Positions 19,151-35,964 of a DNA stretch of 64,000 bases are shown one piece after another; position 1 is the stretch's first letter; each line of letters opens with the position of its first letter. Both the position numbers and the translations under genes were made by a program. The notes below the pieces were generated by a model. The model made no database searches, was not told the origin of the DNA, and saw only the letters and a list, made by a program, of their open reading frames with translations. The stretch is from Escherichia coli (GTDB taxonomy: Bacteria; Pseudomonadota; Gammaproteobacteria; Enterobacterales; Enterobacteriaceae), in NCBI RefSeq assembly GCF_003018115.1, contig NZ_CP027457.1; one strand, written 5' to 3'.

Positions 19151-19151
19151 A

Positions 19152-20481: not shown

Positions 20482-20920
20482 ACTGCAGAAGGTGGACGAC
20501 TGGCTGAGTGCCTTGCTGGCGAATCTGGAACCAGCCTCGAGAAGCCGCATGATGCGCCAGCTGGCGCAGGAACTTCGCCGGACACAGCAGCAGAATATCA
20601 GGATGCAGCGCAACCCTGACGGCAGCGGCTATGAACCGCGACGGGTAACAGCACGCAGTAAAAAAGGCCGTATCAAACGTCAGATGTTTGCAAAGCTGCG
20701 CACCACAAAATACCTGAAAACTGCCGCCAGCACCGACTCTGCCAGCGTGCAGTTTGAAGGCAAGGTGCAGCGCATTGCCCGCGTTCACCATTACGGCCTG
20801 CGAGATCGCGTCAGTCGTAAGGGACCGGAGGTGCGTTACGCAGAGCGTCGCCTTCTGGGTGTAAATGATGATGTTGAGGCAATGACCCGCGACATGATTC
20901 TGCAATGGCTGGCGGGGTGA
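20474..20920 (+). CDS. S: tail completion protein (P2 gpS-like)
   Basis: 148 aa; synteny. Confidence 0.75.
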   Translation: MAELQKVDDWLSALLANLEPASRSRMMRQLAQELRRTQQQNIRMQRNPDGSGYEPRRVTARSKKGRIKRQMFAKLRTTKYLKTAASTDSASVQFEGKVQRIARVHHYGLRDRVSRKGPEVRYAERRLLGVNDDVEAMTRDMILQWLAG

Positions 20921-20924
20921 TCTT

Positions 20925-20942
20925 TGTATCAGCACTGATACA
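20925..20942 (+). promoter_or_regulatory. Ogr-dependent late promoter dyad TGT-N12-ACA (pV-like)
   Basis: TGTATCAGCACTGATACA (also a palindrome) about 55 bp upstream of V. Confidence 0.6.
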
Positions 20943-20988
20943 AGTTGCAGCACTGCCGCCTTTCTTCCCCTGATGGCAACCTTTCCCT

Positions 20989-21567
20989 ATGAACGCACAA
21001 TTAACCGAAATCATGCGCCTTATCACCAACCTGATCCGCACAGGGGTAGTCATCGAAGTGGACAGGGAAAACTGGCTTTGCCGGGTGAAAACGGGCGACC
21101 TTGAAACCAACTGGATTAACTGGCTGACGCTGCGCGCGGGTAATGCCCGGACATGGTGGCGACCATCGGAAGGTGAGCAGGTGGTGCTACTGAGTCTGGG
21201 CGGCAATCTGGAAACAGCCTTTGCGCTGCCCGCCATCTATTCGAATCAGTTCGCGCCACCGTCGACGTCGGCAGACGCCTGCGTGACAGAACATCCTGAC
21301 GGTGGCTGGTTTGAATACGAACCTGCCACCGGGCGTTGGTATGTAAGGGGCATCAAATCAATGGTCATTGAGGCCGCTGACAACATCACCATGAAAACCA
21401 GTGAGTTTGTACTGGAGGCTGACCACACGCGCATTAACAGCGAAGTGGTGATCAATGGTGGCGTTACCCAGGGCGGCGGAGTGATGAGTTCTAACGGGAT
21501 TGTGGTTGATGCACATCAGCATACTGGCGTCCTGAAAGGCGGCGACACAACCGGAGGCCCGGTATGA
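20989..21567 (+). CDS. V: baseplate spike/assembly protein (P2 gpV-like)
   Basis: 192 aa; synteny V-W-J-I. Confidence 0.8.
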   Translation: MNAQLTEIMRLITNLIRTGVVIEVDRENWLCRVKTGDLETNWINWLTLRAGNARTWWRPSEGEQVVLLSLGGNLETAFALPAIYSNQFAPPSTSADACVTEHPDGGWFEYEPATGRWYVRGIKSMVIEAADNITMKTSEFVLEADHTRINSEVVINGGVTQGGGVMSSNGIVVDAHQHTGVLKGGDTTGGPV

Positions 21568-21923
21568 CGCTTTATAGCGGGATGAACAATACCAGCGGTA
21601 AAGCCATTACTGATATTGACCATCTGCGCCAGTCGGTGCGGGACATTTTGCTGACGCCGCAGGGTAGCCGCATTGCCCGTCGGGAATATGGTTCCCTGCT
21701 GTCGGCACTGATAGACCAGCCACAAAATCCGGCATTACGCCTGCAGGTCATGTCGGCAGTGTATGTGGCGCTGAGTCGCTGGGAGCCACGGCTGACGCTG
21801 GATTCCATCACCATCAACAGCAACTTTGACGGTTCTATGGTGGTGGAGCTGACCGGGCGGCGGAATAACGGTGTGCCTGTGTCCCTTTCCGTATCAACAG
21901 GAGCAGAGAATGGCAGTGATTGA
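21564..21923 (+). CDS. W: baseplate protein (P2 gpW-like, gp25-like)
   Basis: 119 aa; synteny. Confidence 0.8.
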   Translation: MTLYSGMNNTSGKAITDIDHLRQSVRDILLTPQGSRIARREYGSLLSALIDQPQNPALRLQVMSAVYVALSRWEPRLTLDSITINSNFDGSMVVELTGRRNNGVPVSLSVSTGAENGSD

Positions 21924-22818
21924 CCTTTCGCAGTTGCCTGCACCGCAGATTGTGGATGTGCCGGACTTTGAGACGCTGCTTGCCGAACGCAAGGCAGAAT
22001 TTGTGGCGCTTCATCCGAAAGATGAGCAGGAAGCCGTGATCCGAACGTTGGAACTGGAATCTGAACCCGTCACTAAATTGTTGCAGGAGAACGCTTACCG
22101 TGAGTTGCTTCTGCGCCAGCGCATTAACGAAGCCGCGCAGGCGGTGATGGTGGCTTACGCGATGGGCGGCGATCTTGACCAGCTCGCTGCCAACTACAAC
22201 GTGACACGCCTGACGGTGACGCCTGCTGATAATGATGCTGTGCCGCCCGTTGCAGCTGTGATGGAAAGCGATGAAGCGTTACGCCTGCGTGTGCCTGCAG
22301 CCTTTGAAGGGCTTTCTGTTGCGGGGCCAACTGCAGCTTATGAATTTCATGCCCGAAGCGCCGACGGTAGGGTGGCGGATGCCAGTGCAACCAGCCCGGC
22401 ACCTGCAGAGGTGGTGCTGACTGTCCTTAGCCGCGAAGGCGATGGAACTGCAGAAAAAGACCTGCTGGACGTGGTGGAAAAAGCTCTGAACAGTGAGAAC
22501 GTCCGCCCGGTGGCTGACCGTCTGACGGTTCGCAGCGCAGAAATCATCCCGTATCGCGTGGAAGCTACCATTTTTCTCTATCCGGGACCGGAAGCAGAGC
22601 CGGTAATGGCAGCGGCAAAAGCCAGCCTGCAGAAGTACATCGCCAGTCAGACGCGTCTTGGTCGGGATATTCGCCGTAGCGCCATCTTTGCCGCCCTGCA
22701 TGTTGAGGGTGTGCAGCGTGTGGAGCTGGCTTCTCCTCTGGCGGATGTGGTCCTGAACAAAACACAGGCGGCATCATGTACGCAGTGGAGCGTAACCAAC
22801 GGAGGAACGGATGAATAG
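21910..22818 (+). CDS. J: baseplate protein (P2 gpJ-like)
   Basis: 302 aa from ATG 21910 (same length as P2 gpJ). Confidence 0.8.
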   Translation: MAVIDLSQLPAPQIVDVPDFETLLAERKAEFVALHPKDEQEAVIRTLELESEPVTKLLQENAYRELLLRQRINEAAQAVMVAYAMGGDLDQLAANYNVTRLTVTPADNDAVPPVAAVMESDEALRLRVPAAFEGLSVAGPTAAYEFHARSADGRVADASATSPAPAEVVLTVLSREGDGTAEKDLLDVVEKALNSENVRPVADRLTVRSAEIIPYRVEATIFLYPGPEAEPVMAAAKASLQKYIASQTRLGRDIRRSAIFAALHVEGVQRVELASPLADVVLNKTQAASCTQWSVTNGGTDE

Positions 22819-23416
22819 TCTGCTGCCACCGGGTTCAACTTCACTGGAGCGCCGACTGGCGCAAACCTGTAGCGGGATTTCTGATCTGCAGGTGCCGCTG
22901 CGTGACTTGTGGAATCCGGCTACCTGTCCGGTCAGCTTCCTGCCTTATCTCGCCTGGGCGTTCTCTGTGGATCGCTGGGACGAGGGCTGGACAGAAAGCG
23001 TCAAACGCCAGGTAGTGAAGGATGCTTTTTATATTCATCAGCATAAAGGAACCACCAGTGCCGTGCGGCGGGTGGTGGAACCGTTCGGATTCCTGATCCG
23101 CATTATTGAGTGGTGGCAGACCGGAGAGGCTCCGGGCACGTTTCGCCTGGATATCGGCGTGCAGGACCAGGGCATCACTGAAGATACCTATCTGGAACTT
23201 GAGCGACTGATAAGCGATGCCAAACCATGTAGCCGCCACATGATCGGCATGTCCATCAATCTGCAGACCAGCGGCCCGCATTGGGTGGGAGCCGCCAGCT
23301 ATCTTGGCGAAGAAATCACGATCTATCCGTATATCAACGAAACAATTATTTCCGGTGGCACCGCGCATGAAGGCGGGGCGGTCCATGTTATTGACACAAT
23401 GAGAGTGAATCCATGA
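22811..23416 (+). CDS. I: baseplate protein (P2 gpI-like)
   Basis: 201 aa; GGAGG RBS. Confidence 0.75.
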   Translation: MNSLLPPGSTSLERRLAQTCSGISDLQVPLRDLWNPATCPVSFLPYLAWAFSVDRWDEGWTESVKRQVVKDAFYIHQHKGTTSAVRRVVEPFGFLIRIIEWWQTGEAPGTFRLDIGVQDQGITEDTYLELERLISDAKPCSRHMIGMSINLQTSGPHWVGAASYLGEEITIYPYINETIISGGTAHEGGAVHVIDTMRVNP

Positions 23417-24835
23417 GCACAAAATTTTATACCCTGCTGACGGATATTGGCGCGGCGAAACTTGCCAGCGCCGCCGCGCTCGGTGTGCCGCTAAAAATTA
23501 CCCATATGGCGGTGGGCGATGGCGGCGGAGCATTGCCGACGCCGGACGCAAAGCAGACGGCACTGGTAAATGAGAAACGCCGGGCTGCGCTGAATATGCT
23601 CTATATCGACCCGCAGAACAGCAGCCAGATTATTGCTGAACAGGTGATCCCTGAAAATGAGGGTGGTTGGTGGATACGTGAAGTGGGTCTGTTTGATGAG
23701 TCCGGGGCATTGATTGCCGTAGGCAACTGCCCGGAAAGCTATAAGCCGCAACTGGCTGAAGGCAGCGGGCGCACCCAGACCGTGCGCATGGTGCTGATTA
23801 CCAGCAGCACGGACAATATCACCCTGAAAATCGACCCTGCCGTCGTGCTGGCAACCCGCAAGTATGTGGATGACAAGGTACTGGAGCTGAAGGTGTTCGT
23901 GGATGATAAGATGGCAAAACATCTTGCCGCACCGGACCCGCATTCACAGTATGCACCCAAAGAAAGCCCGACATTGACCGGAACACCCAAAGCGCCAACG
24001 CCAGCGGAGGGGAATAACACCACGCAGATTGCGACCACCGCGTTTGTTCAGGCCGCTATTACTGCTCTGATTAACGGTGCGCCAGCCACGCTGGACACAC
24101 TGAAAGAAATTGCCGCAGCCATTAACAATGACCCGAAATTCAGTACCACCATTAACAATGCGCTGGCACTAAAAGCACCGCTGTCGAGTCCGGCACTCAC
24201 CGGAACGCCAACAGCACCTACTGCGGCACAGTCGGTCAACAATACACAGATTGCCACTACAGCTTTTGTGAAATCAGCGATTGCGGCAATGGTGGGTTCT
24301 GCACCTGCTGCACTGGATACACTGAACGAACTGGCGGCGGCGCTGGGGAATGACCCGAACTTTGCCACGACAATGTTGAATGCGCTGTCAGGCAAACAAC
24401 CGCTGGACAATACGCTGACTAATTTGAGTGGAAAGGATGTTGCTGGTCTTCTCGCATACCTTGGTTTGGGAGAAGCGGCAAAACGGGATGTGGGGACAGG
24501 GGAAAATCAGATACCGGACATGGCCTCTTTTGCCAGTGGTGATGGATGGATGAAATTACCCAACGGGAAAATCCTGCAATATGGTCGTGGTGCGGTTACG
24601 CCGACATTATCGACGCAAAACAATGAGAATTACATTCAGCATTCCTTTCCCCAAAAAAGCGGACTGCGCCATGCTTACTCATTCTGGTGATGGCGGTGCG
24701 CCTTTAGGCGCTGGGCGAGGGTTCGTGATGACTGCAGAAGGCCCAACGTTAACCGGCTTTAATTCTGCTTACAGAACGTCATCAACCAGCGACACGGTAT
24801 CGATGAATTACAGTTGGTGGGCTGTTGGTGAGTAA
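23413..24835 (+). CDS. H: tail fibre protein (P2 gpH-like); variable C-terminal part lies inside the invertible segment; apparent +1 frameshift at C4A6 run 24649..24658
   Basis: Collagen-like repeats (TGTPKAPT.., TGTPTAPT..); frame from 23413 stops at 24690 while an overlapping frame (24581..24835) runs open to just before tfa; removing one A from A6 joins them. Confidence 0.7.
24449..24474. repeat. invertase crossover site (left), TTCTCGCATACC-TT-GGTTTGGGAGAA
   Basis: 26-bp imperfect dyad inside H at the GLGE codons; right half is the exact reverse complement of the left half of the site at 26358..26383. Confidence 0.6.
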
Positions 24836-24855
24836 TTTTATTCAGGGTGATTTAT

Positions 24856-25299
24856 ATGAACGAATATGTTTATAGCGCAAGGCATAATGCTTTTTTCCCT
24901 GTGGATATGATTGATAAATATAAATCAGAGGGATGGGATTTATCAGACGCTAAGGAAGTAAATCAAAATATTATCAGTGAGTTTATGGCTGAACCGCCAC
25001 AAGGAAAAATCCGTATTGCCGGAGATGATGGGCTGCCTGCGTGGGCAGATATTCCTCCACCCACGCATGAAGAGCTTATTGAAATTACTGAATCAGAAAG
25101 ACAGCTACTAATTAACCAGGCCAACGAATACATGAACAGTAAGCAATGGCCCGGTAAAGCCGCTATTGGTCGTCTGAAAGGTGAGGAACTGGCGCAATAT
25201 AATTTGTGGCTGGATTATCTGGACGCACTGGAGCTGATCGATACTTCCGGTGCGCCAGATATTGAATGGCCTACGCCTCCGGCAGTTCAGGCCAGATGA
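24856..25299 (+). CDS. tail fibre assembly protein (Tfa, gpG/U-like)
   Basis: Follows the fibre gene in current orientation. Confidence 0.75.
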   Translation: MNEYVYSARHNAFFPVDMIDKYKSEGWDLSDAKEVNQNIISEFMAEPPQGKIRIAGDDGLPAWADIPPPTHEELIEITESERQLLINQANEYMNSKQWPGKAAIGRLKGEELAQYNLWLDYLDALELIDTSGAPDIEWPTPPAVQAR

Positions 25300-25873
25300 C
25301 ATCCGGCGCTGTGCTGGTATCTGTTGCCGTCACCGCGTCAATGTAATCCAGCACAGCGTTAAGGCGGGTTGTTTCTGCCTGCGTCAGCTTCCGTCCGGCC
25401 TGTAATTTCAGTTGAATCAGACTGATGGAGGCCATTGCAGTATCAATCAGCGACTGGCGCTGTGCTTCTGCTGCATCTACTGCTGCGCCGTGCTGTGCCT
25501 TGGTATCTGTCACCCATTTCTCACCATTCCATTCATCGTATGGCGTTAACGGGGCGATAGTGGTTGTATTTTCAGGATAATCACCCGGAGCTGTGATTTC
25601 TTTCGATTCTCCTGTTTCGATGCTATAGACGATTTCACCGCGATGATCTGGCACATATTCCCATGAATTTAAATTCACAGAACGACAGATTGCATAACCA
25701 ACCTTATGTATGCCTGGTGCATCAAGACAGGAACATGCCGGAATACCGACACCAACAGCAAGATATTCAGTTGACGTGGAAATATATTCCCGTGTTTCAC
25801 CATCGTAGTTATAAACGGTAACATCCCCTGCCTTTGTTGCAATAAGGTCACTATTTAATATTGCTTTATGCAT
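25271..25873 (-). CDS. alternative tail fibre assembly protein (Tfa')
   Basis: 200 aa on opposite strand within invertible segment; C-terminal ...DTSTAPDVIWPELPEA parallels Tfa ...DTSGAPDIEWPTPPA. Confidence 0.75.
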   Translation of the reverse strand: MHKAILNSDLIATKAGDVTVYNYDGETREYISTSTEYLAVGVGIPACSCLDAPGIHKVGYAICRSVNLNSWEYVPDHRGEIVYSIETGESKEITAPGDYPENTTTIAPLTPYDEWNGEKWVTDTKAQHGAAVDAAEAQRQSLIDTAMASISLIQLKLQAGRKLTQAETTRLNAVLDYIDAVTATDTSTAPDVIWPELPEA

Positions 25874-26370
25874 CAGGCTGCCCTCACGATATAATTAAAT
25901 GCAATATTACGCGGACGCGTTTCTGAGGCTGCGGCACCTAAACCAGCCACTGATTGTTTATATGTTTTAAAGGTTCCATAATCCGGTGCTGGTAATCCGG
26001 CATCGTTTGTGTTTCCTCTTTTGATAATGTCAGTGCCACTATTTACCCAGCTTTCATCAAAATAGAAATTAATAGTTGCATCAGTCACAATCGTGGATCT
26101 TGACGGTAATCCATGAGCATGATCCTCCGTTGCATATCCCTGAATACTTAAAATAGAGCGACCTGTATCAATCCCCGCCCGTCATCCCAGCCACGAATAA
26201 ACTCACCACGTAAATCAGGCAATTTATTTGTCGGGTAAACTTTTGCCAGTTCCGGGTATTCTTCAGCAGAAAAAGCTGCACCATTGCATTTCAGCCAGCC
26301 TGTAGGCGGAGTGGCTGAAGGCCACGGAACAGGGACACCAACAGGTAATGCAGAGCCTTCTCCCAAACCA
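25873..26370 (-). other. alternative tail-fibre variable C-terminal segment (H'), promoterless, with apparent frameshift at C4 run 26173..26176
   Basis: Minus-strand reading from the crossover site: ...GLGEGSALPVGVPVPWPSATPPTGWLKCNGAAFSAEEYPELAKVYPTNKLPDLRGEFIRGWDDGRG, then frame shifts to ...DTGRSILSIQGYATEDHAHGLPSRSTIVTDATINFYFDE... Confidence 0.6.
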
Positions 26371-26383
26371 ACGTTTATGAAAA
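26358..26383. repeat. invertase crossover site (right), TTCTCCCAAACC-AA-CGTTTATGAAAA
   Basis: Inverted relative to left site; core dinucleotide AA vs TT. Confidence 0.6.
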
Positions 26384-26438
26384 TGCAGAGATAATGGCTA
26401 ACTGGCATCATCCCCGGTTTTTATTCAGGGGATTGATC

Positions 26439-27005
26439 ATGCTTATTGGCTATGTACGCGTGTCAACAAATGACCAGAACACCGATTTGCAACGTAATGC
26501 ACTGAACTGCGCGGGATGTGAGCGGATTTTTGAGGACAAAATCAGTGGCACTAAGTCCGACAGACCGGGGCTTAAAAAACTGCTCAGGACACTATCGGCA
26601 GGTGACACACTGGTTGTCTGGAAGCTGGACAGGTTGGGGCGCAGTATGCAGCATCTTGTTACGCTGATAGAAGAGTTGCGCCAGCGTGGCGTGAATTTCC
26701 GAAGCCTGACTGACAGTATTGATACCAGTACCCCAATGGGCCGTTTCTTTTTTCATGTCATGGGTGCCCTGGCTGAAATGGAACGCGAACTGATAGTTGA
26801 ACGTACCAGGGCAGGGCTGGCTGCAGCTCGTGCCAAAGGCAGAGTAGGTGGGCGTCGTCCTAAGTTGACCACCGAACAGTGGGCACAGATTGGACGTTTA
26901 CTCGAGGCCGGAGAATCAAGACAGCGTATTGCACTGATTTTTGATGTGGGCGTTTCTACCATTTATAGAAAATTTCCGGTGAATGAGAGCAATGAATCGC
27001 CCTGA
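26439..27005 (+). CDS. serine DNA invertase (Gin/Hin/Cin/Pin family)
   Basis: MLIGYVRVSTNDQNTDLQRNAL (catalytic Ser in VRVST) and C-terminal HTH; 188 aa. Confidence 0.9.
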   Translation: MLIGYVRVSTNDQNTDLQRNALNCAGCERIFEDKISGTKSDRPGLKKLLRTLSAGDTLVVWKLDRLGRSMQHLVTLIEELRQRGVNFRSLTDSIDTSTPMGRFFFHVMGALAEMERELIVERTRAGLAAARAKGRVGGRRPKLTTEQWAQIGRLLEAGESRQRIALIFDVGVSTIYRKFPVNESNESP

Positions 27006-27053
27006 GTCAGCATTATTTTGATTTTTCCTGTAAGCGGACAAATACCGTTATTT

Positions 27054-27071
27054 TGTGTGAATAACGACACA
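27054..27071 (+). promoter_or_regulatory. Ogr-dependent late promoter dyad TGT-N12-ACA (pF-like)
   Basis: TGTGTGAATAACGACACA about 85 bp upstream of FI. Confidence 0.6.
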
Positions 27072-27147
27072 ACTGCGCTTAGCTGTTTGTCAGGCACAAT
27101 CACTTCAACATAGGGCGAAGCCTAATCCAATCAGGAGGTTCGCCACT

Positions 27148-28320
27148 ATGGCTCAGGATTACCACCACGGGGTGCGCGTTGTTGAAGTCAACGAAGGCAC
27201 CCGATCTATTACCACGGTGAGCACCGCCATCGTGGGTATGGTCTGCACGGGCGATGATGCCGATGCAAAAATGTTTCCTCTTAATAAACCCGTGCTGATC
27301 ACTGATGTGCTGACTGCCAGCGGTAAAGCGGGTGAGTCAGGTACTCTGGCCCGTTCGCTGGATGCCATCGCTGACCAGGCAAAACCCGTGACCATTGTTG
27401 TGCGTGTGCCGCAGGGTGAAACGGAAGACGAAACCACGACCAATATCATCGGCGCAGTGACTGCTGAAGGTAAAAAAACAGGTATGAAAGCCCTGTTATC
27501 TGCCCAGTCACAGCTCGGCGTTAAACCGCGCATTCTCGGCGTGCCAGGCCACGACACCAAGGCGGTAGCTACTGAGTTGCTGAGCGTGGCGCAAAGCCTG
27601 CGTGGATTTGCTTACCTGTCAGCGTATGGCTGCAAGACAGTGCAGGAGGCGATCACTTACCGCGAAAACTTCAGCCAGCGCGAAGGGATGCTGATCTGGC
27701 CTGACTTTACTGGTTGGGACACGGTGCTGAATGCCGAAGCAACGGCATATGCCGCCGCCCGTGCGCTTGGTCTGCGCGCCAAAATTGACGAGCAGACCGG
27801 ATGGCACAAAAGCCTGTCCAACGTGGGCGTGAACGGTGTCACCGGAATTTCTGCAGATGTGTTCTGGGATCTGCAGGACCCGGCAACCGATGCAGGTCTG
27901 CTGAACCAGAACGACGTCACCACGCTTGTGCGTAAAGACGGTTTCCGCTTCTGGGGTTCCCGCTGCCTGAGTGATGACCCGCTCTTTGCCTTCGAAAACT
28001 ACACCCGCACGGCGCAGGTGCTGATGGACACGATGGCAGAAGCACACATGTGGGCGGTGGATAAACCGCTTAACCCGTCGCTGGCCCGCGACATTATCGA
28101 AGGTATCCGCGCCAAAATGCGCAGCCTGGTCAGTCAGGGCTATCTCATTGGTGGTGATTGCTGGCTGGATGAGTCGGTGAACGACAAAGACACGCTGAAA
28201 GCCGGAAAACTCACCATCGACTACGACTACACGCCAGTGCCGCCACTTGAAAACCTGATGCTGCGTCAGCGCATCACCGATCAGTACCTGGTGAATTTCG
28301 CCAGCCAGGTCAGCGCGTAA
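27148..28320 (+). CDS. FI: tail sheath protein (P2 gpFI-like)
   Basis: 390 aa; strong RBS AGGAGG; synteny. Confidence 0.85.
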
Positions 28321-28329
28321 GGGGACAAC

Positions 28330-28845
28330 ATGGCATTACCACGCAAATTAAAACACCTGAACCTGTTTAACGACGGGAACAACTGGCAGGGGATCGTTGA
28401 GTCGCTGACGCTGCCGAAATTTACCCGCAAATATGAGAAGTATCGCGGCGGCGGAATGCCGGGTGCGGTGGATGTGGATCTGGGGCTTGATGACAGTGCG
28501 CTGGACACAGAATTTTCCATTGGTGGTACTGAATTGCTGCTGTTTAAACAGATGGGTAAAGCCACGGTGGATGGCATCCAGCTGCGCTTTACCGGCTCTA
28601 TTCAGCGTGACGATACCGGGGAAGTGCAGGCCGTGGAGCTTGTCGTGCGTGGACGTCACAAAGAAGTGGATTCCGGCGAGTGGAAGACGGGCGAAAGCAA
28701 CACCACCAAAGTGACCAGTACCAACAGCTACGCGAAGCTGACCATCAATGGTGAGGTGCTCTATGAAGTGGACCTTATCAACATGGTGGAAATTGTGGAC
28801 GGTGTGGACCTGATGGAAGCGCACCGCAACGCCCTCGGCCTCTGA
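28330..28845 (+). CDS. FII: tail tube protein (P2 gpFII-like)
   Basis: 171 aa; synteny. Confidence 0.85.
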   Translation: MALPRKLKHLNLFNDGNNWQGIVESLTLPKFTRKYEKYRGGGMPGAVDVDLGLDDSALDTEFSIGGTELLLFKQMGKATVDGIQLRFTGSIQRDDTGEVQAVELVVRGRHKEVDSGEWKTGESNTTKVTSTNSYAKLTINGEVLYEVDLINMVEIVDGVDLMEAHRNALGL

Positions 28846-28899
28846 TATATCTGAACGGCGCGGGATACCGCGCCAGAACCCAATTGACAGGACAGCAAA

Positions 28900-29202
28900 A
28901 TGAGCGATAAGCAGACTGAAAAGACCATTCAACTGGATACCCCCATCAAGCGCGGTAAAACAGAAATCACCGAAATTGTGCTGCGTAAACCGCAGTCCGG
29001 TGCGCTGCGCGGTACACGCCTGCAGGCCATTATGGATATGGATGTAAACGCGATGATGACCGTGATCCCCCGCATCTCCAGCCCGGCGCTGACTGCACAG
29101 GAAATTGCAGAGATGGACCCGGCAGATCTCACTGCCATGTCGGTTGAGGTTGTCACTTTTTTGTTGAAGAAGTCGGTGCTTGCCGGTTTACCGACAGCCT
29201 GA
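28900..29202 (+). CDS. E: tail assembly chaperone (P2 gpE-like)
   Basis: 100 aa, precedes tape measure gene. Confidence 0.75.
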   Translation: MSDKQTEKTIQLDTPIKRGKTEITEIVLRKPQSGALRGTRLQAIMDMDVNAMMTVIPRISSPALTAQEIAEMDPADLTAMSVEVVTFLLKKSVLAGLPTA

Positions 29203-29336
29203 CGGTTGACGATCTGGTGGCAGATATCGCCACCATTTTTCACTGGCCGCCATCCGTTACTGACGTTATGCCGCTGACCGAAGTGCTGGAATGGCGGTAT
29301 AAAGCGATTCAGAGAAGCGGGGCCAACGATGAGTGA
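29157..29336 (+). other. programmed -1 translational frameshift: slippery heptamer TTTTTTG (29157..29163) and E' extension ending at TGA 29334..29336
   Basis: T6G slip site near end of E; -1 frame is open for 59 codons and ends as T begins (G/GT-like tail chaperone arrangement). Confidence 0.65.
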
Positions 29337-32300
29337 TAACAACCTGCGTCTGCAGGTCATTCTTAATGCGGTTGACAAGCTCACCCGCCCATTTCGATCT
29401 GCGCAGGCCAGTTCAAGAGAACTGGCTGCTGCTGTCAAAAAATCCCGCGATGCAATAAAGCAGCTTGATCAGGCCGGGAGCAGTCTGGACAGCTTCCGAA
29501 AGCTGCAGGCAGAAAATCAGAAATTAGGCGACAGGCTGAACTATGCCCGCCAGCGTGCAAATTTGCTCAGTCAGGAACTGGGAGCGATGGGGCCGCCTTC
29601 GCAACGTAAGGTTGTTGCTCTGGGCCGTCAACGGCTGGCTGTTCAGCGCCTGGAAGAACGCCAGAAAAAGCTGCAGCAGCAGACGGCGCTTGTGCGTGCT
29701 GAACTGTACCGGGCGGGAATTTCTGCGAAAGACGATGCGGGAGCAACTGCCCGTTTAGCCCGTGAAACATCACGTTATAACCAGGAACTTTCGAAACAGG
29801 AGGCGCGGCTGAAGCGACTGGGGGAAGCTCAGCGCAGGATGAATGCAGCGCGTGCCAGTTATGCCCGTTCGCTGGAGGTGCGTGATCGTATTGCAGGTGC
29901 CGGAGCCACCACCACGGCTGCAGGGCTGGCAATGGGTGCGCCAGTGATGGCGGCAGTAAAAAGCTATACCAGCATGGAAGATGCCATGAAAGGTGTGGCA
30001 AAGCAGGTCAATGGTCTGCGTGACGATAATGGCAACCGCACTGCACGTTTTTATGAAATGCAGGATGCCATCAAGGCTGCCAGCGAACAGTTGCCGATGG
30101 AAAACGGTGCGGTGGACTTCGCTGCACTGGTTGAAGGTGGTGCGCGCATGAACGTCGCAAATCCTGACGACAGCTGGGAAGATCAGAAACGTGACCTGCT
30201 GGCCTTCGCCAGTACGACAGCAAAGGCGGCAACAGCCTTTGAGCTGCCAGCGGATGAACTGTCAGAAAGTCTGGGGAAAATCGCCCAGCTCTACAAAATC
30301 CCCACCCGCAATATTGAACAGCTCGGTGATGCGCTGAACTATCTGGATGATAACGCCATGTCGAAAGGGGCAGACATCATTGATGTGATGCAACGTCTGG
30401 GCGGTGTGGCTGACCGTCTGGATTATCGTAAAGCGGCGGCGCTGGGTTCCACCTTCCTGACACTGGGCGCTGCGCCAGAGGTTGCAGCCAGTGCAGCAAA
30501 CGCGATGGTGCGTGAATTGTCCATTGCCACCATGCAAAGCAAGAGTTTCTTTGAAGGGATGAATCTGCTGAAACTCAATCCTGAAGTGATTGAAAAGCAG
30601 ATGACGAAGGATGCGATGGGAACCATCCAGCGCGTGCTGGAGAAGGTAAACGCGCTGCCGCAGGACAAGCGCCTGTCTGCCATGACTATGTTGTTTGGTA
30701 AAGAGTTTGGCGATGACGCGGCGAAACTGGCAAACAACCTGCCGGAACTGCAGCGTCAGTTAAAATTGACAGCGGGCAATGATGCGCTTGGCTCCATGCA
30801 GAAAGAATCCGACATTAACAAGGATTCACTTTCTGCGCAGTGGTTGCTGGTCAAAACCGGAGCGCAGAACACCTTCAGCAGCCTGGGCGAAACGCTGCGC
30901 CAGCCGCTGATGGATATTCTGTACACGGTGAAAAGCGTCACGGGGGCGTTGCGTCGCTGGGTGGAAGCTAACCCGGAACTGACAGGCACACTGATGAAAG
31001 CATCGGCTGTTGTGGCTGCGGTTACCGTCGGCCTCGGCACCTTAGCGGTGGCGCTGGCTGCAGTGCTGGGGCCGCTGGCAGTGATCCGTCTGGGATTCTC
31101 TGTGTTGGGTATCAAAACGTTATCTTCCGTTACGGCAGCAGTAACTCGAACCAGCAGCGCGTTGTCCTGGCTGGCTGGCGCACCACTGGCACTGCTGCGA
31201 CGCGGGCTTGCTTCATCGGGCAACGCCGCAGGTTTACTTACTGCGCCGTTGTCGTCTTTGCGCCGCACGGCATCACTGACGGGAAATGTCCTGAAAACTG
31301 TAGCAGGTGCGCCGGTTGCACTTTTGCGGTCTGGATTATCCGGTTTACGTGCGGTTGCTGTGATGTTTATGAATCCACTGGCAGCACTACGCGGCGGGCT
31401 GGCTGCCGCAGGCACGGTGCTGCGAGTACTGGCATCTGGTCCGCTGGCGATGCTGCGCGTTGCCCTGTATGCCGTATCTGGTCTGTTAGGTGCTCTGCTC
31501 AGTCCGATAGGTCTTGTGGTTACTGCACTGGCGGGTGTGGCACTGGTTGTCTGGAAATACTGGCAACCCATCACCGCATTTCTCGGTGGCGTGGTGGAAG
31601 GATTCAAAGCGGCGGCAGGTCCCATCAGTGCAGCGTTCGAACCGCTTAAGCCTGTGTTCCAGTGGATTGGTGACAAAGTGCAGGCGCTGTGGGGCTGGTT
31701 TACTGATCTGCTGACGCCCGTTAAGTCGACTTCTGCCGAACTGCAGAGCGCAGCGGCAATGGGGCGACGATTCGGGGAGGCACTGGCGGAAGGGCTGAAT
31801 ATGGTTATGCATCCGCTGGACTCCCTGAAATCTGGCGTTTCCTGGTTGCTGGATAAACTCGGCATTGTCAGTAAAGAGGCTGCAAAGGCGAAACTGCCGG
31901 AAAGCGTGACGCGTCAGCAACCTGCGACGGTGAATGCAGACGGTAAAGTGATGATGCCATCGGGTGGTTTTCCGTCATGGGGATATGGCTTTGCGGGGAT
32001 GTATGACAGCGGCGGCTATATCCCGCGCGGGCAGTTTGGCATCGTCGGTGAAAACGGGCCGGAAATTGTTAACGGCCCGGCAAATGTGACCAGCCGGAGA
32101 AATACAGCTGCACTGGCTGCCGTTGTTGCCGGAATGATGGGCGTTGCTGCCGCGCCTGCAGAGCTTCCACCGTTGCACCCTTTGGCACTTCCCGCGAAAG
32201 GCGGCGAAGCGATGGTGAGTCGTGCAGCCACTGTGCCGCCCGTTCAACGGATTGAGGCACCGATGCAGATCATCATTCAGACGCAGCCAGGACAAAGTGC

Positions 32301-32406
32301 GCAGGATATTGCGCGGGAGGTGGCCCGCCAGCTTGATGAACGTGAACGCAGGCTGAAGGCAAAAGCCAGGAGTAACTACAGCGATCAGGGGGGATACGAC
32401 GCATGA
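29329..32406 (+). CDS. T: tail tape measure protein (P2 gpT-like)
   Basis: 1025 aa, Ala/Leu-rich repeats, C-terminal region. Confidence 0.85.
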   Translation: MSDNNLRLQVILNAVDKLTRPFRSAQASSRELAAAVKKSRDAIKQLDQAGSSLDSFRKLQAENQKLGDRLNYARQRANLLSQELGAMGPPSQRKVVALGRQRLAVQRLEERQKKLQQQTALVRAELYRAGISAKDDAGATARLARETSRYNQELSKQEARLKRLGEAQRRMNAARASYARSLEVRDRIAGAGATTTAAGLAMGAPVMAAVKSYTSMEDAMKGVAKQVNGLRDDNGNRTARFYEMQDAIKAASEQLPMENGAVDFAALVEGGARMNVANPDDSWEDQKRDLLAFASTTAKAATAFELPADELSESLGKIAQLYKIPTRNIEQLGDALNYLDDNAMSKGADIIDVMQRLGGVADRLDYRKAAALGSTFLTLGAAPEVAASAANAMVRELSIATMQSKSFFEGMNLLKLNPEVIEKQMTKDAMGTIQRVLEKVNALPQDKRLSAMTMLFGKEFGDDAAKLANNLPELQRQLKLTAGNDALGSMQKESDINKDSLSAQWLLVKTGAQNTFSSLGETLRQPLMDILYTVKSVTGALRRWVEANPELTGTLMKASAVVAAVTVGLGTLAVALAAVLGPLAVIRLGFSVLGIKTLSSVTAAVTRTSSALSWLAGAPLALLRRGLASSGNAAGLLTAPLSSLRRTASLTGNVLKTVAGAPVALLRSGLSGLRAVAVMFMNPLAALRGGLAAAGTVLRVLASGPLAMLRVALYAVSGLLGALLSPIGLVVTALAGVALVVWKYWQPITAFLGGVVEGFKAAAGPISAAFEPLKPVFQWIGDKVQALWGWFTDLLTPVKSTSAELQSAAAMGRRFGEALAEGLNMVMHPLDSLKSGVSWLLDKLGIVSKEAAKAKLPESVTRQQPATVNADGKVMMPSGGFPSWGYGFAGMYDSGGYIPRGQFGIVGENGPEIVNGPANVTSRRNTAALAAVVAGMMGVAAAPAELPPLHPLALPAKGGEAMVSRAATVPPVQRIEAPMQIIIQTQPGQSAQDIAREVARQLDERERRLKAKARSNYSDQGGYDA

Positions 32407-32888
32407 TGATGGTGCTGGGATTGTACGTGTTTATGCTGCGCACCGTGCCGTATCAGGAGCTGCAGTATCAACGCAGCTGGCGACATGCGGCAAACAGCCG
32501 GGTAAACCGACGTCCGTCCACGCAGTTTCTGGGACCGGACAACGACATGCTGACGCTTTCCGGTGTTCTTATGCCGGAGATAACAGGCGGCAGGCTGTCG
32601 TTGCTGGCACTGGAGCAGATGGCAGAACAGGGGAAAGCATGGCCCCTGATTGAAGGCAGCGGCACGATTTACGGCATGTATGTGATTGAGGGACTGAATC
32701 AGACTAAAACGGAGTTTTTCCGCGACGGTATGCCGCGCCGGATTGAGTTCACCCTGTCGCTCAAACGAGTGGATGAATCCCTGTCCGATATGTTCGGTGA
32801 TCTCAGTGCGCAACTGAATAATCTGCAGGACACGGCAACGTCTGCCTTAAGCGATATCAGTAAAACGGTGGGAGGGCTGCTGTCGTGA
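32403..32888 (+). CDS. U: tail protein (P2 gpU-like)
   Basis: 161 aa; synteny. Confidence 0.8.
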   Translation: MMMVLGLYVFMLRTVPYQELQYQRSWRHAANSRVNRRPSTQFLGPDNDMLTLSGVLMPEITGGRLSLLALEQMAEQGKAWPLIEGSGTIYGMYVIEGLNQTKTEFFRDGMPRRIEFTLSLKRVDESLSDMFGDLSAQLNNLQDTATSALSDISKTVGGLLS

Positions 32889-33985
32889 ATTTCAGCTCTG
32901 AACTGCTTAACAAAGGCAACAAAACTCCCGCATTCAGCATCAGCATTGAGGGCAGGGATATCACCACTGTGCTGGATAACCGCCTGATGAGTTTGACGCT
33001 GACGGATAACCGGGGCTTTGAAGCGGACCAGCTTGATCTGGAGTTGGATGACGCTGACGGAAAAATCGTGCTGCCGCGCCGTGGTGCGGTCATTACGCTG
33101 GCGCTGGGCTGGAAGGGGCAGCCGCTTTTCCCGAAAGGGGCATTCACAGTGGACGAGATTGAACACACTGGCGCACCGGACCGCCTGACTATCCGGGCGC
33201 GAAGTGCTGATTTTCGGGAAACGCTGAATACCCGCCGTGAAAAATCGTGGCATAAGACCACCGTCGGGGAAGTGGTGAAGGAAATAGCCGCGCGGCACAA
33301 GCTGAAGATGGCACTGGGTAAAGACCTGTCGGATAAACCCGTGGAGCATATAGACCAGACTAATGAGAGTGACGGCAGTTTTCTGATGCGGCTGGCGCGA
33401 CAGTACGGTGCCATCGCGTCGGTGAAAAATGGCAATCTGTTATTCATCCGGCAGGGGCAGGGCAAAAGCGCCACTGGTAAACCTCTGCCAGTGATCACTA
33501 TCACACGCAAGGACGGCGACAGTCACCGATTTACCCTGGCAGATCGCGGAGCCTACACGGGCGTAATTGCCAGCTGGTTACATACCCGCGAACCTGCGAA
33601 GAAAGAAAGCACCACGGTGAAGCGTAAGCGCAGAACTAAGAAGCAGAAGAAAGAGCCAGAAGCGAAGCAGGGCGATTACCTGGTGGGTACGGATGAAAAC
33701 GTGCTGGTACTTAATCGCACTTATGCCAACCGGAGCAACGCCGAACGAGCGGCGAAAATGCAGTGGGAACGCCTGCAACGCGGCGTTGCGTCATTTTCGC
33801 TACAACTGGCAGAAGGGCGGGCAGATCTCTACACGGAAATGCCTGTGAAGGTCAGCGGTTTTAAACAGCCGATAGATAATGCGGAATGGACCATTACGAC
33901 TCTGACACATACCGTCAGCCCGGATAACGGTTTTACAACCAGTATTGAACTCGAAGTGAAGATTGATGATCTTGAAATGGAATAA
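32885..33985 (+). CDS. D: tail protein / late gene D (P2 gpD-like)
   Basis: 366 aa; synteny; GTG start. Confidence 0.8.
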   Translation: MNFSSELLNKGNKTPAFSISIEGRDITTVLDNRLMSLTLTDNRGFEADQLDLELDDADGKIVLPRRGAVITLALGWKGQPLFPKGAFTVDEIEHTGAPDRLTIRARSADFRETLNTRREKSWHKTTVGEVVKEIAARHKLKMALGKDLSDKPVEHIDQTNESDGSFLMRLARQYGAIASVKNGNLLFIRQGQGKSATGKPLPVITITRKDGDSHRFTLADRGAYTGVIASWLHTREPAKKESTTVKRKRRTKKQKKEPEAKQGDYLVGTDENVLVLNRTYANRSNAERAAKMQWERLQRGVASFSLQLAEGRADLYTEMPVKVSGFKQPIDNAEWTITTLTHTVSPDNGFTTSIELEVKIDDLEME

Positions 33986-34053
33986 AGTGTTCTCAATATT
34001 GATATTTTGTGTATCATTACAATGATTCTGATAGCAAAGGTAGGGATCTGGAT

Positions 34054-34272
34054 ATGATGAATTGTCCAAAGTGTGGTCATGCGGCACACACAAGGAGCAG
34101 TTTTCAAGTAACTGAAAGCACCAAAGAGCGTTACTGCCAGTGCCAAAATATTAACTGCGGGAGCACTTTTGTTACTCATGAAACAGTGGTCCGGTTTATT
34201 GTGACACCCGCACTGATTGCTACTGCTCCTCCACATCCATTGCCAGGTGGTCAGGGGCATATGAATTTTTGA
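34054..34272 (+). CDS. ogr: Ogr/Delta-family zinc-finger late transcription activator
   Basis: MMNCPKCGHAAHTRSS...ERYCQCQNINCGSTF...HPLPGG closely parallels P2 Ogr (CPLCQHAAH...YHQCQNVNCSATF...HPLPSG). Confidence 0.85.
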   Translation: MMNCPKCGHAAHTRSSFQVTESTKERYCQCQNINCGSTFVTHETVVRFIVTPALIATAPPHPLPGGQGHMNF

Positions 34273-34279
34273 GAAAGAG

Positions 34280-34300
34280 AACCTGCTACGGCAGGTTTTT
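34280..34300. terminator. bidirectional Rho-independent terminator
   Basis: AACCTGC-tacg-GCAGGTT followed by TTTT; serves ogr (+) and the convergent WYL-BRCT gene (-). Confidence 0.65.
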
Positions 34301-34781
34301 ATTCATCTGGGATCTCACCCGTTTCAAGAAAATGTATAAAGCCAGGCTCATCTATGATGATTGTGCCTTTCATCCTGGCTGCCGATACTTTTGATGGGCC
34401 TGCATTGTAACCGCAACAGAGCATCTGAAGGCTTTGGGTTACAGAGGTTCTTACCGTTAATCCTTGTTCATTCGCCTTATCAACCAATCTTTCTTTATCT
34501 GCTTTCTTAAATCCGGTGAAACACACATCGAATGTATTTTTTTTCGGACCAGACTGCTTAGTGAGATGTGAGTAGCTTTCGGGGAGGAATGACGCGCATT
34601 CCTGAATGGCTTGTTCTGGTGAATCGTACTGTTTAAGAATGCGGTCTTTTCGGAAGGTTTTTATTCGATCGGTGTTCTTACAAATGCCCTGTATATGATT
34701 TTCGCTATAACTGATGCTCTGTATAGAGTGAACACCGATACGACCATTTGCATTGATGTAAACAAAGTGAAGTTCTTCCAT
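34299..34781 (-). CDS. small WYL-domain plus BRCT-domain protein, cargo between ogr and attR
   Basis: 160 aa; N-terminal FVYINANGRIGVHSI...GICKNTDRIKTFRKDRI (WYL-like, ends in the FRxDRI signature); C-terminal DVCFTGFKKADKERLVDKANEQGLTVRTSVTQSLQMLCCGYNAGPSKVSAARMKGTIIIDEPGF (BRCT-like); RBS AGAGG before ATG at 34779-34781. Confidence 0.6.
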   Translation of the reverse strand: MEELHFVYINANGRIGVHSIQSISYSENHIQGICKNTDRIKTFRKDRILKQYDSPEQAIQECASFLPESYSHLTKQSGPKKNTFDVCFTGFKKADKERLVDKANEQGLTVRTSVTQSLQMLCCGYNAGPSKVSAARMKGTIIIDEPGFIHFLETGEIPDE

Positions 34782-34807
34782 GTGAAACCTCTTTGCATGA
34801 TCTCAAG

Positions 34808-34846
34808 ATGGCGACAGGCAAGATGGACGCAAAAGTCTGTCGCCAT
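34808..34846. repeat. inverted pair of the CTGTCGCCAT motif (ATGGCGACAG ... CTGTCGCCAT), candidate P-arm integrase binding sites / hairpin
   Basis: Perfect 10-bp inverted repeat with 19-nt spacer, 60-100 bp from attR core; same motif as 801..821. Confidence 0.4.
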
Positions 34847-34904
34847 TTTGCCGCCACTACCAAAGAAAAAGGGGCTACGCTTTCACGTAACCCCTTGATT
34901 TATT

Positions 34905-35267
34905 TGGTGGAGCTGGCGGGAGTTGAACCCGCGTCCGAAATTCCTACATCCTCGGTACTACATGCTTAGTCAGTCTTTACATTCGCTTGCCAGCTGCGGA
35001 CGGACACGCCACTAACAAACTAGCCTGATTAAGTTTTAACGCTTCAACCCCTGGCAGGGCTTCCACGCGATCTCTTTTGGGTTTGACCTCTCTTGATCCC
35101 CGTCCTAAGAGCGGAGGCTAGGGAGAGAGGGCTCTAAGCAGGTTATTAAGCTGCTAAAGCGTAGTTTTCGTCGTTTGCGACTATTTTTTGCGGCTTTTTA
35201 CGAGGCCAACCGCCCCTCGGCATGCACCTTGGGTTTCGCAAATCCCGTCGAATCCAGAATCAGCCCC
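34905..35267 (-). ncRNA. ssrA: tmRNA (SsrA), complete; 3' 45 nt form attR
   Basis: Reverse complement matches the E. coli tmRNA from GGGGCTGATTCTGGATTCGACGGG to ...GGTTCAACTCCCGCCAGCTCCACCA, including the tag-encoding region. Confidence 0.95.
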
Positions 35268-35481
35268 AATGTGTAAAGGTAAGTATACCAGATTTATGAG
35301 CGCCATGACCAGCCTCAATGGCGTTATCGTTAAAGATTTAGCACCCATGTAGCCTGATTTTTATTCGATTAAGCAATGGGATGGCAACATTTGTGTCGGA
35401 TGTGATAGCCAATAAGATGTTCATTCGCGCCGCCGGAGAGGGAGGCGCGGTGAGGAACTGGTCAATAATTGGAGTGCAGGT

Positions 35482-35964
35482 TTAACGGTGGGCGTTTTTC
35501 ATGATACGCGCTTTATCCACCTGCCATTCGCGCTCTTTGATATCTGAACGTTTATCGTGCTGTTTCTTACCTTTGGCGACGCCGATTTTCACTTTGCACC
35601 AGGCATTTTTCCAGTACAGGGAGAGCGCCACTACGGTATAGCCTTCTCGATTGACGCGACCGTACAATGAGTCCAGTTCGCGCTGGTTGAGAAGTAACTT
35701 GCGGGTACGGGTAGGGTCGCACACCACATGCGTGGAGGCCACGGCCATTGGCGTGATGTTAGCGCCAAACAGAAATGCCTCTCCGTCACGCAGAAGGACG
35801 TAGCTGTCGCTGATATTGGCTTTTCCTGCGCGCAGGGATTTAACTTCCCAGCCTTGCAGGGCAAGTCCCGCTTCGAACTCTTCTTCGATAAAGTATTCGT
35901 GACGGGCGCGCTTGTTAAGCGCGATGGTCGCTGAACCAGGTTTATGTGCTTTTTTCTTCGTCAT
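35482..35964 (-). CDS. smpB: SsrA-binding protein SmpB
   Basis: 160 aa, directly upstream of ssrA on same strand; sequence as E. coli SmpB. Confidence 0.95.

Follow-up and report, generated by a model that had tools for sequence, protein, structure and literature searches.

The window analysed here is a stretch of 64,000 nucleotides from Escherichia coli (contig NZ_CP027457.1), and it holds a P2-like prophage (708..34903) inserted at the 3′ end of ssrA, the tmRNA gene. ssrA was found by both ARAGORN and Rfam (tmRNA, 294.9 bits), and over 34200..35450 the Rfam search returned tmRNA only and no other RNA family. A perfect 46-nt direct repeat (662-707 = 34904-34949) flanks the prophage. Starting 123 nt past ssrA and on the same minus strand is an ORF for a protein with a WYL and a BRCT domain, with the Shine-Dalgarno sequence AGAGG, so that the WYL-BRCT gene lies directly downstream of ssrA, as the initial annotation had described it. 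The features of the locus are collected in Table 1.

Table 1. Coordinates of the genes, attachment cores and regulatory elements discussed in the text, with the basis of each assignment.
Feature	Position	Strand	Basis
attL core, copy of the final 46 nt of ssrA	662..707	-	100% direct repeat with 34904-34949
Int-proximal cargo gene, two-transmembrane prediction	793..1722	-	ORF
Two direct TGGCGACAG repeats, 11 bp spacing; putative Int arm-type sites, attP P arm	801..820	-	Motif count
Tyrosine integrase gene (int), frameshifted	1829..2868	-	Alignments to Cartapus int and to the intact int of CFSAN051542
Immunity repressor (C/CI), first gene of the lysogeny operon running towards attL	2872..3510	-	ORF; relatives annotated "phage repressor protein CI"
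ogr (late-gene activator), convergent with the WYL-BRCT gene	34054..34272	+	Annotation; Ogr_Delta Pfam domain in homologous loci
Hairpin between ogr and the WYL-BRCT gene, which converge; shared terminator of bidirectional type	34280..34297	.	7-bp stem AACCTGC/GCAGGTT; plus-strand T-run after ogr
Focal gene, 160-aa WYL-BRCT protein	34299..34781	-	ORF, domains, homologues
Inverted arm-type 9-mer, forms hairpin with 34837-34845; E. coli lineage only	34809..34817	+	Not conserved in Klebsiella loci
TGGCGGCAAAATGGCGACAG, tandem arm-type repeats, attP P′ arm	34837..34856	-	Conserved across loci
Intrinsic terminator, phage-supplied: stem-loop 34896->34869, then U-tract	34860..34896	-	Identical in Fels-2; conserved in relatives
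attR core, 3′ end of intact ssrA	34904..34949	-	Direct repeat with 662-707
ssrA (tmRNA), tag ANDENYALAA	34905..35267	-	ARAGORN, Rfam
ssrA promoter-like site TGGTCA-18-TATACT	35282..35311	-	Sole sigma-70-like match in 34000..35600; 9.6 bits in PWM scan

The comparisons show that the WYL-BRCT ORF is a genuine, conserved accessory gene of P2-like phages (Peduoviridae). A spurious ORF was ruled out by the conserved family, the good Shine-Dalgarno sequence and the high-confidence fold. Homologues were found in 122 clusters at E<=1e-3, the WYL-BRCT family comprises 198 clusters (50% identity) at E<=1e-30, and residues Y8, T42, T89, G90, F91 and K131 are invariant across homologues. Among 5426 complete E. 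coli genomes, 168 carry the gene immediately behind an intact ssrA. Literature searches on WYL+BRCT+phage, on BRCT+anti-phage+prophage and on PDC-S48 found no study of the WYL-BRCT family.

The domain layout consists of a WYL domain at residues about 1-55 followed by a BRCT domain of the RFC1/LigA type at about 84-155, and structure prediction upheld the WYL and BRCT calls of the initial annotation (AlphaFold2 model, pLDDT 91.8). In the predicted structure the N-terminal domain adopts the Sm-like / SH3 five-stranded beta-barrel fold of solved WYL proteins, and the C-terminal domain has the BRCT beta-alpha-beta-beta-alpha-beta-alpha fold. Because the N-terminal domain, run as a profile against solved structures, gave nothing significant (PafBC, E=1.2), the identification of the WYL domain needed a fold search. 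The Pfam WYL model (PF13280) does not match the window protein, and at E<=1e-3 it matches 2 of 50 close family members and 20 of 61 longer relatives. For the domains fused to these longer relatives Pfam gave no identity, and they show hydrophobic segments only. Membrane-anchored versions of WYL-BRCT are common in other bacteria.

The BRCT domains of the RFC1/LigA subclass bind 5′-phosphorylated DNA, and the T/S-G and Lys residues of their motifs act in 5′-phosphate binding. In the profile alignment, FTG of the WYL-BRCT protein stands against FTG of Rfc1 and AGPsK against AGPkK, with T89, G90 and K131 invariant. Two database labels have been attached to members of the family, and sequence comparison rejects both as mis-annotations. 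The label NAD-dependent DNA ligase (PHROG 2561; record of phage 500465-1) falls on a protein of only 160 aa that has no catalytic domains: against TIGR00575, residues 42-146 alone align, to LigA 549-650 of 652, with 19.6 bits for a cut-off of 444. The label DEDDh exonuclease, in the Cartapus record, comes from a match of NF004719 to the C-terminal BRCT part alone (229-307 of 331), where the WYL-BRCT protein scores 25.9 bits for a cut-off of 389. Furthermore, domain searches gave the protein no enzymatic domain and no HTH domain. PADLOC returned no full-length defence-system match, and its partial match aligns BRCT residues 83-153 with 335-406 of 411 in the candidate PDC-S48 (1.8e-7).

Judged by fold similarity, the signal recognised by the WYL-BRCT protein is probably a nucleic acid. 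The ligand of the WYL domain may be ssDNA, as for PafBC, DriD and CapW, and that of the BRCT domain a 5′-phosphate DNA end or a nick, as for RFC1 and LigA. The function predicted from these folds would probably be one in the lysogen, such as superinfection exclusion, defence or DNA-damage sensing.

The relatives place the gene in a recurrent genomic setting. In P2-like phages of Pectobacterium, Yersinia ruckeri, Serratia, Xenorhabdus, Vibrio (PV94), Mannheimia (PHL101) and Burkholderia the homologue is a member of the CI-int lysogeny operon, with gaps of 4-45 nt to its neighbours, and the usual order in most relatives is CI, WYL-BRCT, int. By sequence comparison the family is widespread and, in P2-like phages across Enterobacterales, Pasteurellaceae, Vibrio and Burkholderia, consistently tied to the repressor-integrase region. 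Because homologues lie within the repressor-int operon, the family looks lysogen-expressed. In the ssrA lineage, and in a sister lineage that uses a tRNA with a CAT anticodon, attP falls between int and the WYL-BRCT gene; integration therefore severs the gene from the repressor promoter and sets a host RNA gene upstream of it. In at least one genome (GF54) and in two IMG/VR contigs another island lies between the gene and the ssrA promoter, and the ORF is still intact.

This geometry agrees with the initial annotation, which had int, a membrane protein gene and the WYL-BRCT gene consecutive and co-directional in the circular phage and parted by integration. When the prophage ends are joined, the three genes do follow one another, all on the minus strand, and the joined order is seen directly in the phage-form genomes of Cartapus, Yersinia phage MLG42 and the IMG/VR contigs L050 and L061; integration moves the int side away and puts the WYL-BRCT gene behind ssrA. 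The int of the window lacks one T between 2407 and 2406, which splits it into the ORFs 2341..2868 and 1829..2353, and the intact int of strain CFSAN051542 is 99% identical to it. The int-proximal gene is AT-rich (about 33% GC) and belongs to phrog_17460, which carries no assigned function. Its product, of 309 aa from the ATG or 348 aa from a GTG at 1839, has two hydrophobic segments in its N-terminal part and a weak match to a PADLOC "2TM effector" (8.4e-5).

The initial annotation had further described these two genes as one cargo module. The int-proximal slot varies independently: the two-transmembrane gene occurs in 13 of the 5426 E. coli genomes and the WYL-BRCT gene in 169, and the slot holds the two-transmembrane gene in the window and those 13 genomes, a RES-domain gene in Cartapus and L061 and another, 331-aa ORF in L050, and is empty in MLG42, while the WYL-BRCT gene keeps 96-100% identity. 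On these sequences the independent distribution largely refutes a two-gene module. A single sensor-effector system of the two proteins, cut by attP, would fit the adjacency of their genes in the circular map, the weak effector match in the window, the effector-like RES-domain neighbour in Cartapus and the 39 of 46 N-terminally extended WYL-BRCT relatives that have transmembrane-like segments fused in cis. We nevertheless hold it highly improbable, as the neighbour is two-transmembrane, RES, an unrelated ORF or absent beside a constant WYL-BRCT gene, and as operon-type relatives have the repressor and int as neighbours.

The 123-nt interval from ssrA to the ATG corresponds to the P′ arm of attP and contains a terminator followed by two arm-type repeats. 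The motif TGGCGRCAG has 7 matches in the window for 1.5 expected, 4 of which flank the att core, and its pairs at 11-bp spacing (801-820 and 34837-34856) are kept across lineages. The P′ arm pair is kept in all 13 loci beside ssrA or tRNA-Met and also in Fels-2 and MLG42, and MLG42 has the same motif right after the int stop codon. By motif count, the pair at 801..820 probably represents integrase arm-type sites.

According to the initial annotation, only an imperfect hairpin (34808..34846) separates ssrA from the gene. A 9-bp inverted repeat (34809-34817/34837-34845) does exist there; it has no T-run and is not the sole element, for a canonical intrinsic terminator (34896->34869) lies in the same interval. 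The hairpin was rejected as the relevant terminator on three counts: the missing T-run, its lack of conservation (the Klebsiella lineage does not keep the second arm) and the identity of one arm with the integrase arm-type motif. The intrinsic terminator begins 8 nt past the CCA end of ssrA and has a 12-bp stem with 6 GC pairs (-19.2 kcal/mol) followed by TTTTTCTTT. It is kept at every related locus, including Fels-2, which is without the WYL-BRCT gene, and at ssrA-type loci every stem difference preserves pairing (G-U to A-U or G-C). In the tRNA(CAT)-type sister lineage an unrelated but functionally equivalent hairpin and T-run occupy the same place after tRNA-Met. By all sequence criteria the terminator is strong and, because it is identical in the gene-less Fels-2, it bears no sign of weakening for read-through. 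A pairing of the leader with the terminator, of the M1UK type, is absent (-7.5 kcal/mol, a value that shuffled leaders also reach).

With this terminator in place, we favour, at a probability of roughly 45%, the reading that a conserved P2-like accessory gene has lost its link to the repressor promoter and is weakly expressed via terminator-escaping transcripts. In the lysogen the terminator would stop transcription from ssrA, and in the circular phage that of C-int; the few transcripts escaping it would come from Pc/int while lysogeny is being established and, in the lysogen, from ssrA with its heavy transcription. ssrA could drive the gene only through a low-level leak, and such leaky read-through is plausible. 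The tmRNA read-through proposed in the initial annotation would thereby persist in attenuated form, and nothing points to a terminator tuned for leak. The strength of the terminator, which is the same in Fels-2 with nothing downstream, speaks against a leak, and so does the ORF that stays intact even where another island divides it from the ssrA promoter. Co-orientation with ssrA is inherited from the geometry of attP and is not independent evidence of selection.

Those same observations would fit a gene with a weak or factor-dependent promoter of its own in the attP P′ arm or spacer, an insulated moron behind an effectively complete ssrA terminator that is expressed equally in prophage and circular phage. 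Terminators on both sides and a GC content below that of the phage late genes give the gene a moron-like look; as to the features of a moron, the downstream terminator and the lower GC are present, and the promoter scans were without a match. A consensus scan from 34782 to 34904 gave no sigma-70 promoter, and a PWM scan upstream of the gene reached 5.2 bits at best, against a median of 6.9 for the best scores of shuffled sequences and 9.6 for the ssrA promoter as positive control; both scans, the latter run with shuffles in three lineages, are blind to promoters that are weak, need an activator or use an alternative sigma factor. In none of the window, Klebsiella and Pantoea lineages does a site attain even the shuffles' median, which counts against a promoter of its own. 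In its favour, the relative L089 has a promoter-like site of 12.1 bits that overlaps the arm repeats with its -10 in their conserved spacer, and a -10-like hexamer, CAAAAT, stands at the equivalent place in all lineages; in E. coli, however, this hexamer is without a -35 at workable spacing. Operon-type relatives, with their short gaps, are clearly without their own promoter. Collectively, these results leave an own promoter as a possibility that we hold only tentatively. A further alternative confines expression to the circular phage, where Pc transcripts reading through C, int and attP would reach the gene during the establishment of lysogeny and integration would act as an off switch, leaving it essentially silent. 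Its place as the last gene of a co-directional array (C, int, cargo where present, attP, WYL-BRCT) would suit such a route, as does the failure of the scans to find an own promoter. The circular form, however, has the identical terminator between int and the gene, so that the route is no easier than that from ssrA, and the ssrA promoter is far stronger than Pc; most relatives, moreover, place the gene beside the repressor and upstream of int, implying expression in the stable lysogen. We consider this alternative very unlikely.

The favoured reading, escape of a few transcripts past the terminator, can be extended to a broader and more speculative proposal, which we regard as rather doubtful. 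WYL-BRCT would be an unrecognised core-like lysogeny factor of P2-like phages that is made in lysogens and senses ssDNA or 5′-phosphate ends. It might cap or detect incoming or damaged DNA, in superinfection exclusion or defence, or couple DNA damage to prophage behaviour, and in the ssrA/tRNA(CAT) lineage its expression in the lysogen would have passed from the repressor promoter to a leak from a host stable-RNA gene.

The attP of the Fels-2/SopEPhi type shares with the window the 46-nt core, the terminator and the arm-type repeats (97% identity over 34837..34910). It differs in that ogr follows the P′ arm directly in Fels-2, whereas in the window a 483-nt gene separates the P′ arm from the ogr terminator; in other phages this position holds a 73-aa ORF, or WYL-BRCT plus YcaO. 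In lambda int/sib retroregulation and at the circular-form promoters of integrative elements, integration that splits a unit alters its regulation. The window shares with these systems the topology alone, that is, an attP inside a co-directional array and a gene whose surroundings are swapped by integration; neither an RNase III site nor a circular-form promoter was identified at the window locus.

On the side of the protein, PafBC, DriD, CapW and BrxR are WYL transcription factors with a wHTH, whereas the WYL-BRCT protein has no DNA-binding HTH and a BRCT partner instead. RFC1 and LigA give the best sequence and fold matches to its BRCT domain, and the protein differs from them in having no clamp-loader or ligase catalytic module. 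The combination of WYL and BRCT was previously noted only in a domain census (PMC4012209). The family is thus widespread, mis-annotated as ligase or exonuclease and unstudied, and its two domains suggest that it senses DNA ends or ssDNA, a theme common to regulators of phage defence.

P2-like phages are described as having accessory and defence hotspots with variable cargo in fixed slots (Rousset et al. 2022, PMC9122126; bioRxiv 10.64898/2026.02.27.708500). As far as the available parts of these descriptions go, the hotspots correspond to the slot beside int and to the CI-int position seen in the relatives, and the slot between ogr and att is without mention in them. The WYL-BRCT protein differs from the hotspot cargo in being no recognised defence system.

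The closest parallel for the position of the gene is speA of Streptococcus pyogenes M1/M1UK, where a prophage is likewise located at the 3′ end of ssrA, with the cargo gene immediately downstream and co-directional and a Rho-independent terminator in between (PMC9951164). In M1, 0.05-0.7% of the very abundant ssrA transcripts pass the terminator into the prophage speA, and this read-through fixes the level of speA expression (Davies et al. 2023, PMC9951164). The speA prophage has inserted between two host terminators, with loss of the second, and the leak is modulated by pairing of a leader with the terminator; in the window, a single strong terminator comes with the phage, and no such pairing is seen. 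A weakening or removal of ssrA termination by integration, as for speA, is accordingly not seen at the window locus, where the terminator is as in Fels-2. Read-through into speA was measured experimentally, whereas at the window locus it is a prediction. If a leak from ssrA does drive the WYL-BRCT gene, the locus would be a second, Gram-negative case of prophage cargo placed on the tmRNA promoter, one in which a phage-supplied terminator sets the dose.

The window is part of an E. coli chromosome. Its P2-like prophage is bounded by a perfect 46-nt direct repeat (662-707 = 34904-34949) that corresponds to the final 46 nt of ssrA, and the 160-aa WYL-BRCT gene starts 123 nt 3′ of the ssrA end on the same strand. 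This layout, described in the initial annotation, was confirmed; the locus is found in 169 of 5426 complete E. coli genomes and adjoins an intact ssrA in 168 of them. The left host flank (14..502, +) consists of an autotransporter's 3′ end, ypjA/ehaD by a relative's annotation, followed by a hairpin terminator at 505..540; ssrA and ypjA are thus the immediate neighbours of the prophage on its two sides. The integrase is broken by a 1-nt deletion (missing T, between 2407 and 2406; pieces 2341..2868 and 1829..2353), as judged against the Cartapus integrase and an intact 346-aa integrase, 99% identical, in strain CFSAN051542; either the prophage is unable to excise alone or this is a sequencing error.

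Features of the prophage ends and the adjoining host locus
Feature	Position	Strand	Remarks
Cargo gene	793..1722	-	309/348 aa, AT-rich, two N-terminal hydrophobic segments; heading to attL
Integrase (int)	1829..2868	-	heading to attL
Immunity repressor (C)	2872..3510	-	heading to attL
gpD and ogr	end at 34272	+	right prophage end
WYL-BRCT gene	34299..34781	-	160 aa; Shine-Dalgarno AGAGG
ssrA	34905..35267	-	tmRNA, tag ANDENYALAA; ARAGORN and Rfam
smpB	35482..35964		upstream of ssrA

The same annotation had placed only an imperfect hairpin between ssrA and the gene, overlooking a strong intrinsic terminator, AAGGGGTTACGTGAAAGCGTAGCCCCTT (34896->34869) followed by TTTCTTT, that begins 8 nt past the ssrA CCA end. 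Its stem has 12 bp and a free energy of -19.2 kcal/mol, and the whole spacer from ssrA to the ATG folds far better than shuffles (z = -5.5). The hairpin at 34808..34846 was rejected as a terminator: it is an arm-type repeat paired with its inverted copy, lacks a T-run, and has a second arm that the Klebsiella lineage does not share. The terminator is kept in all ssrA-type loci examined, with stem differences that all preserve pairing, and it recurs unchanged in the ssrA-integrating phage Fels-2, where no gene separates attP from ogr. This constancy marks the terminator as a fixed element of the P′ arm of phage attP. In the sister lineage, behind a tRNA with CAT anticodon, an unrelated hairpin and T-run occupy the same position. 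As read from the sequence, the phage terminator would replace the host ssrA terminator on integration and, in the circular phage, would terminate the transcript of C and int. Just 3′ of it, TGGCGGCAAAATGGCGACAG (34856->34837) holds two direct copies of a 9-mer, set 11 bp apart. Across the core, at 801-820, there is a second pair of this 9-mer with equal spacing, and the motif is also present after the int stop codon in Yersinia phage MLG42. We read these repeats as putative arm-type sites that the integrase may bind.

The terminator and arm-repeat block (34843..34909) is present in 992 of the 5426 genomes, far above the 169 with the WYL-BRCT gene, so Fels-2-like attP remnants or prophages are common at ssrA. 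Tandem occupancy of the site is seen at three loci (L004 from E. coli GF54, L040 and L062), where an integrase-bearing island (ParA, integrase) sits between ssrA and the P2-like prophage and a partial ssrA 3′ fragment alone precedes the terminator and WYL-BRCT gene; the L062 fragment has the variant end CGCCAGC-CCACCA.

With the prophage ends joined, the order is C -> int -> cargo -> attP -> 160-aa gene, convergent with ogr. That int, cargo and the WYL-BRCT gene are consecutive in the circular phage was confirmed by direct observation in four sequences in phage form (Escherichia phage Cartapus, MLG42, and IMG/VR contigs L050 and L061); in the circular MLG42 record, one stretch runs through int stop, arm repeats, 46-nt core, terminator, arm repeats and ATG. 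The proposed cargo module is not supported: the genes on either side of attP are inherited independently of each other. The int-plus-cargo segment of the window (700..2900) is found in only 13 genomes, versus 169 with the WYL-BRCT gene. With WYL-BRCT genes 96-100% identical, the int-proximal slot holds a RES-domain gene in Cartapus and L061 and an unrelated 331-aa ORF in L050; it is empty in MLG42 (WYL-BRCT gene 72% identical). The slot between ogr and att is variable too: Fels-2 has nothing there, Klebsiella phage ST15-OXA48phi14.1 carries a 73-aa ORF, and Pantoea has both WYL-BRCT and YcaO. These comparisons indicate that the two positions are independent variable slots. In Pantoea sp. At-9b (4843..6345 of its locus), a YcaO-domain gene and a 68-aa ORF lie between WYL-BRCT and ogr and could be a small RiPP-like cassette on a P2-like prophage. 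The window cargo gene (open to 1839; ~33% GC), between int and attL, is confined to 13 of 5426 E. coli genomes, matches the PADLOC '2TM effector' weakly and phrog_17460 (function unknown), and is a candidate abortive-infection or exclusion protein.

The most informative result is the gene position in other P2-like phages and prophages, where the homologue lies inside the lysogeny operon, 3′ of the repressor and usually 5′ of int, with gaps of 2-45 nt to its neighbours. This arrangement is found in Pectobacterium, Y. ruckeri, Serratia and Xenorhabdus loci (L008, L009, L012, L013), Vibrio phage PV94, Mannheimia phage PHL101 and Burkholderia phages, and a scan of the Xenorhabdus locus found no terminator within the operon around the homologue. 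Given this context, the family appears to be co-expressed with the repressor. Two lineages have attP separating int from the gene: the one at ssrA (E. coli, Klebsiella, MLG42) and the one at tRNA(CAT) (Pantoea plus five IMG/VR contigs). On integration, the gene in these lineages loses its link to the repressor promoter and comes to lie 3′ of a host RNA gene. In the Y. ruckeri locus (4487..4740), an inverted arm-repeat motif (CGCCATTTTGCCGCCA) 3′ of the homologue is followed, on the other strand, by an integrase ORF of only 215 aa, which suggests a rearranged or decayed att/int region. A distant homologue in Candidatus Pseudothioglobus (L014, 4001..5519) lies outside any P2-like phage, convergent with a Mrr_cat restriction-type gene on an island that also has AlpA and a replication-initiator-like gene.

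A consensus scan of the stretch from the terminator to the ATG found no sigma-70-like site, and the best PWM score in the spacer was 5.2 bits (shuffled median best, 6.9; ssrA promoter control, 9.6). In the Klebsiella and Pantoea lineages the best PWM score likewise stays below the shuffled median; among the loci scanned, L089 alone has a good promoter-like site (12.1 bits). On the simplest reading, the gene would rely on transcription entering from upstream, which in the lysogen would come from ssrA, and we assign a probability of about 0.45 to ssrA leak-through as the main source of its expression there. An unrecognised promoter of the gene's own is possible, if somewhat doubtful, and expression in the circular state only seems quite improbable. 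Against leak-through, the terminator is strong, phage-supplied and no weaker than the Fels-2 copy, weak or factor-dependent promoters would be missed by these scans, the attP geometry accounts for the shared orientation with ssrA, and in GF54 and two IMG/VR contigs the gene is intact with another island lying between it and the ssrA promoter. Read-through from ssrA, as first proposed, appears partly supported: it is plausible, has precedent and gains from the operon context of relatives, and is weakened by the strong conserved terminator.

The WYL-BRCT domain call was right: the AlphaFold2 model (mean pLDDT 91.8) has two domains, the family profile matches RFC1 and LigA BRCT by sequence at ~4e-5 with FTG and AGPxK aligned, and 20 of 61 longer relatives match Pfam WYL. 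The family is well conserved, with 122 clusters, invariant Y8, T42, T89, G90, F91 and K131 and a TFRKDRI motif, and the two-domain module recurs widely, in 198 clusters at E<=1e-30. The 'DNA ligase' and 'exonuclease' labels (phage records, PHROG 2561) were rejected, since the BRCT part alone matches, far below curated cut-offs; PADLOC gave only a partial match, to candidate PDC-S48. The family is uncharacterised, and a literature search found no paper on it. The focal protein has neither a catalytic nor an HTH domain. RFC1-type BRCT domains bind 5′-phosphorylated DNA. According to solved-structure descriptions, the WYL domains of PafBC, DriD and CapW bind ssDNA. From these features, the protein would most likely bind or sense ssDNA or DNA ends and be produced in lysogens; it could act in superinfection exclusion or defence, or in DNA-damage sensing. 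Among relatives P0122-P0261, the module is often fused to other regions, and the C-terminal extensions (150-330 aa) gave no Pfam match. Transmembrane-like segments (1-5, by a simple hydropathy window) in 39 of the 46 with an N-terminal extension offer only a hint of action at the membrane.

The leader-terminator pairing of the S. pyogenes strain M1UK was not found at the window locus, which also counts against leak-through. Read-through of a terminator by 0.05-0.7% of ssrA transcripts in S. pyogenes M1 feeds the prophage gene speA and sets its level (PMC9951164). This adjacent prophage gene fed by ssrA read-through is an experimental precedent for the E. coli locus, and the proposed ssrA-driven regulation of a prophage gene belongs to a known kind.
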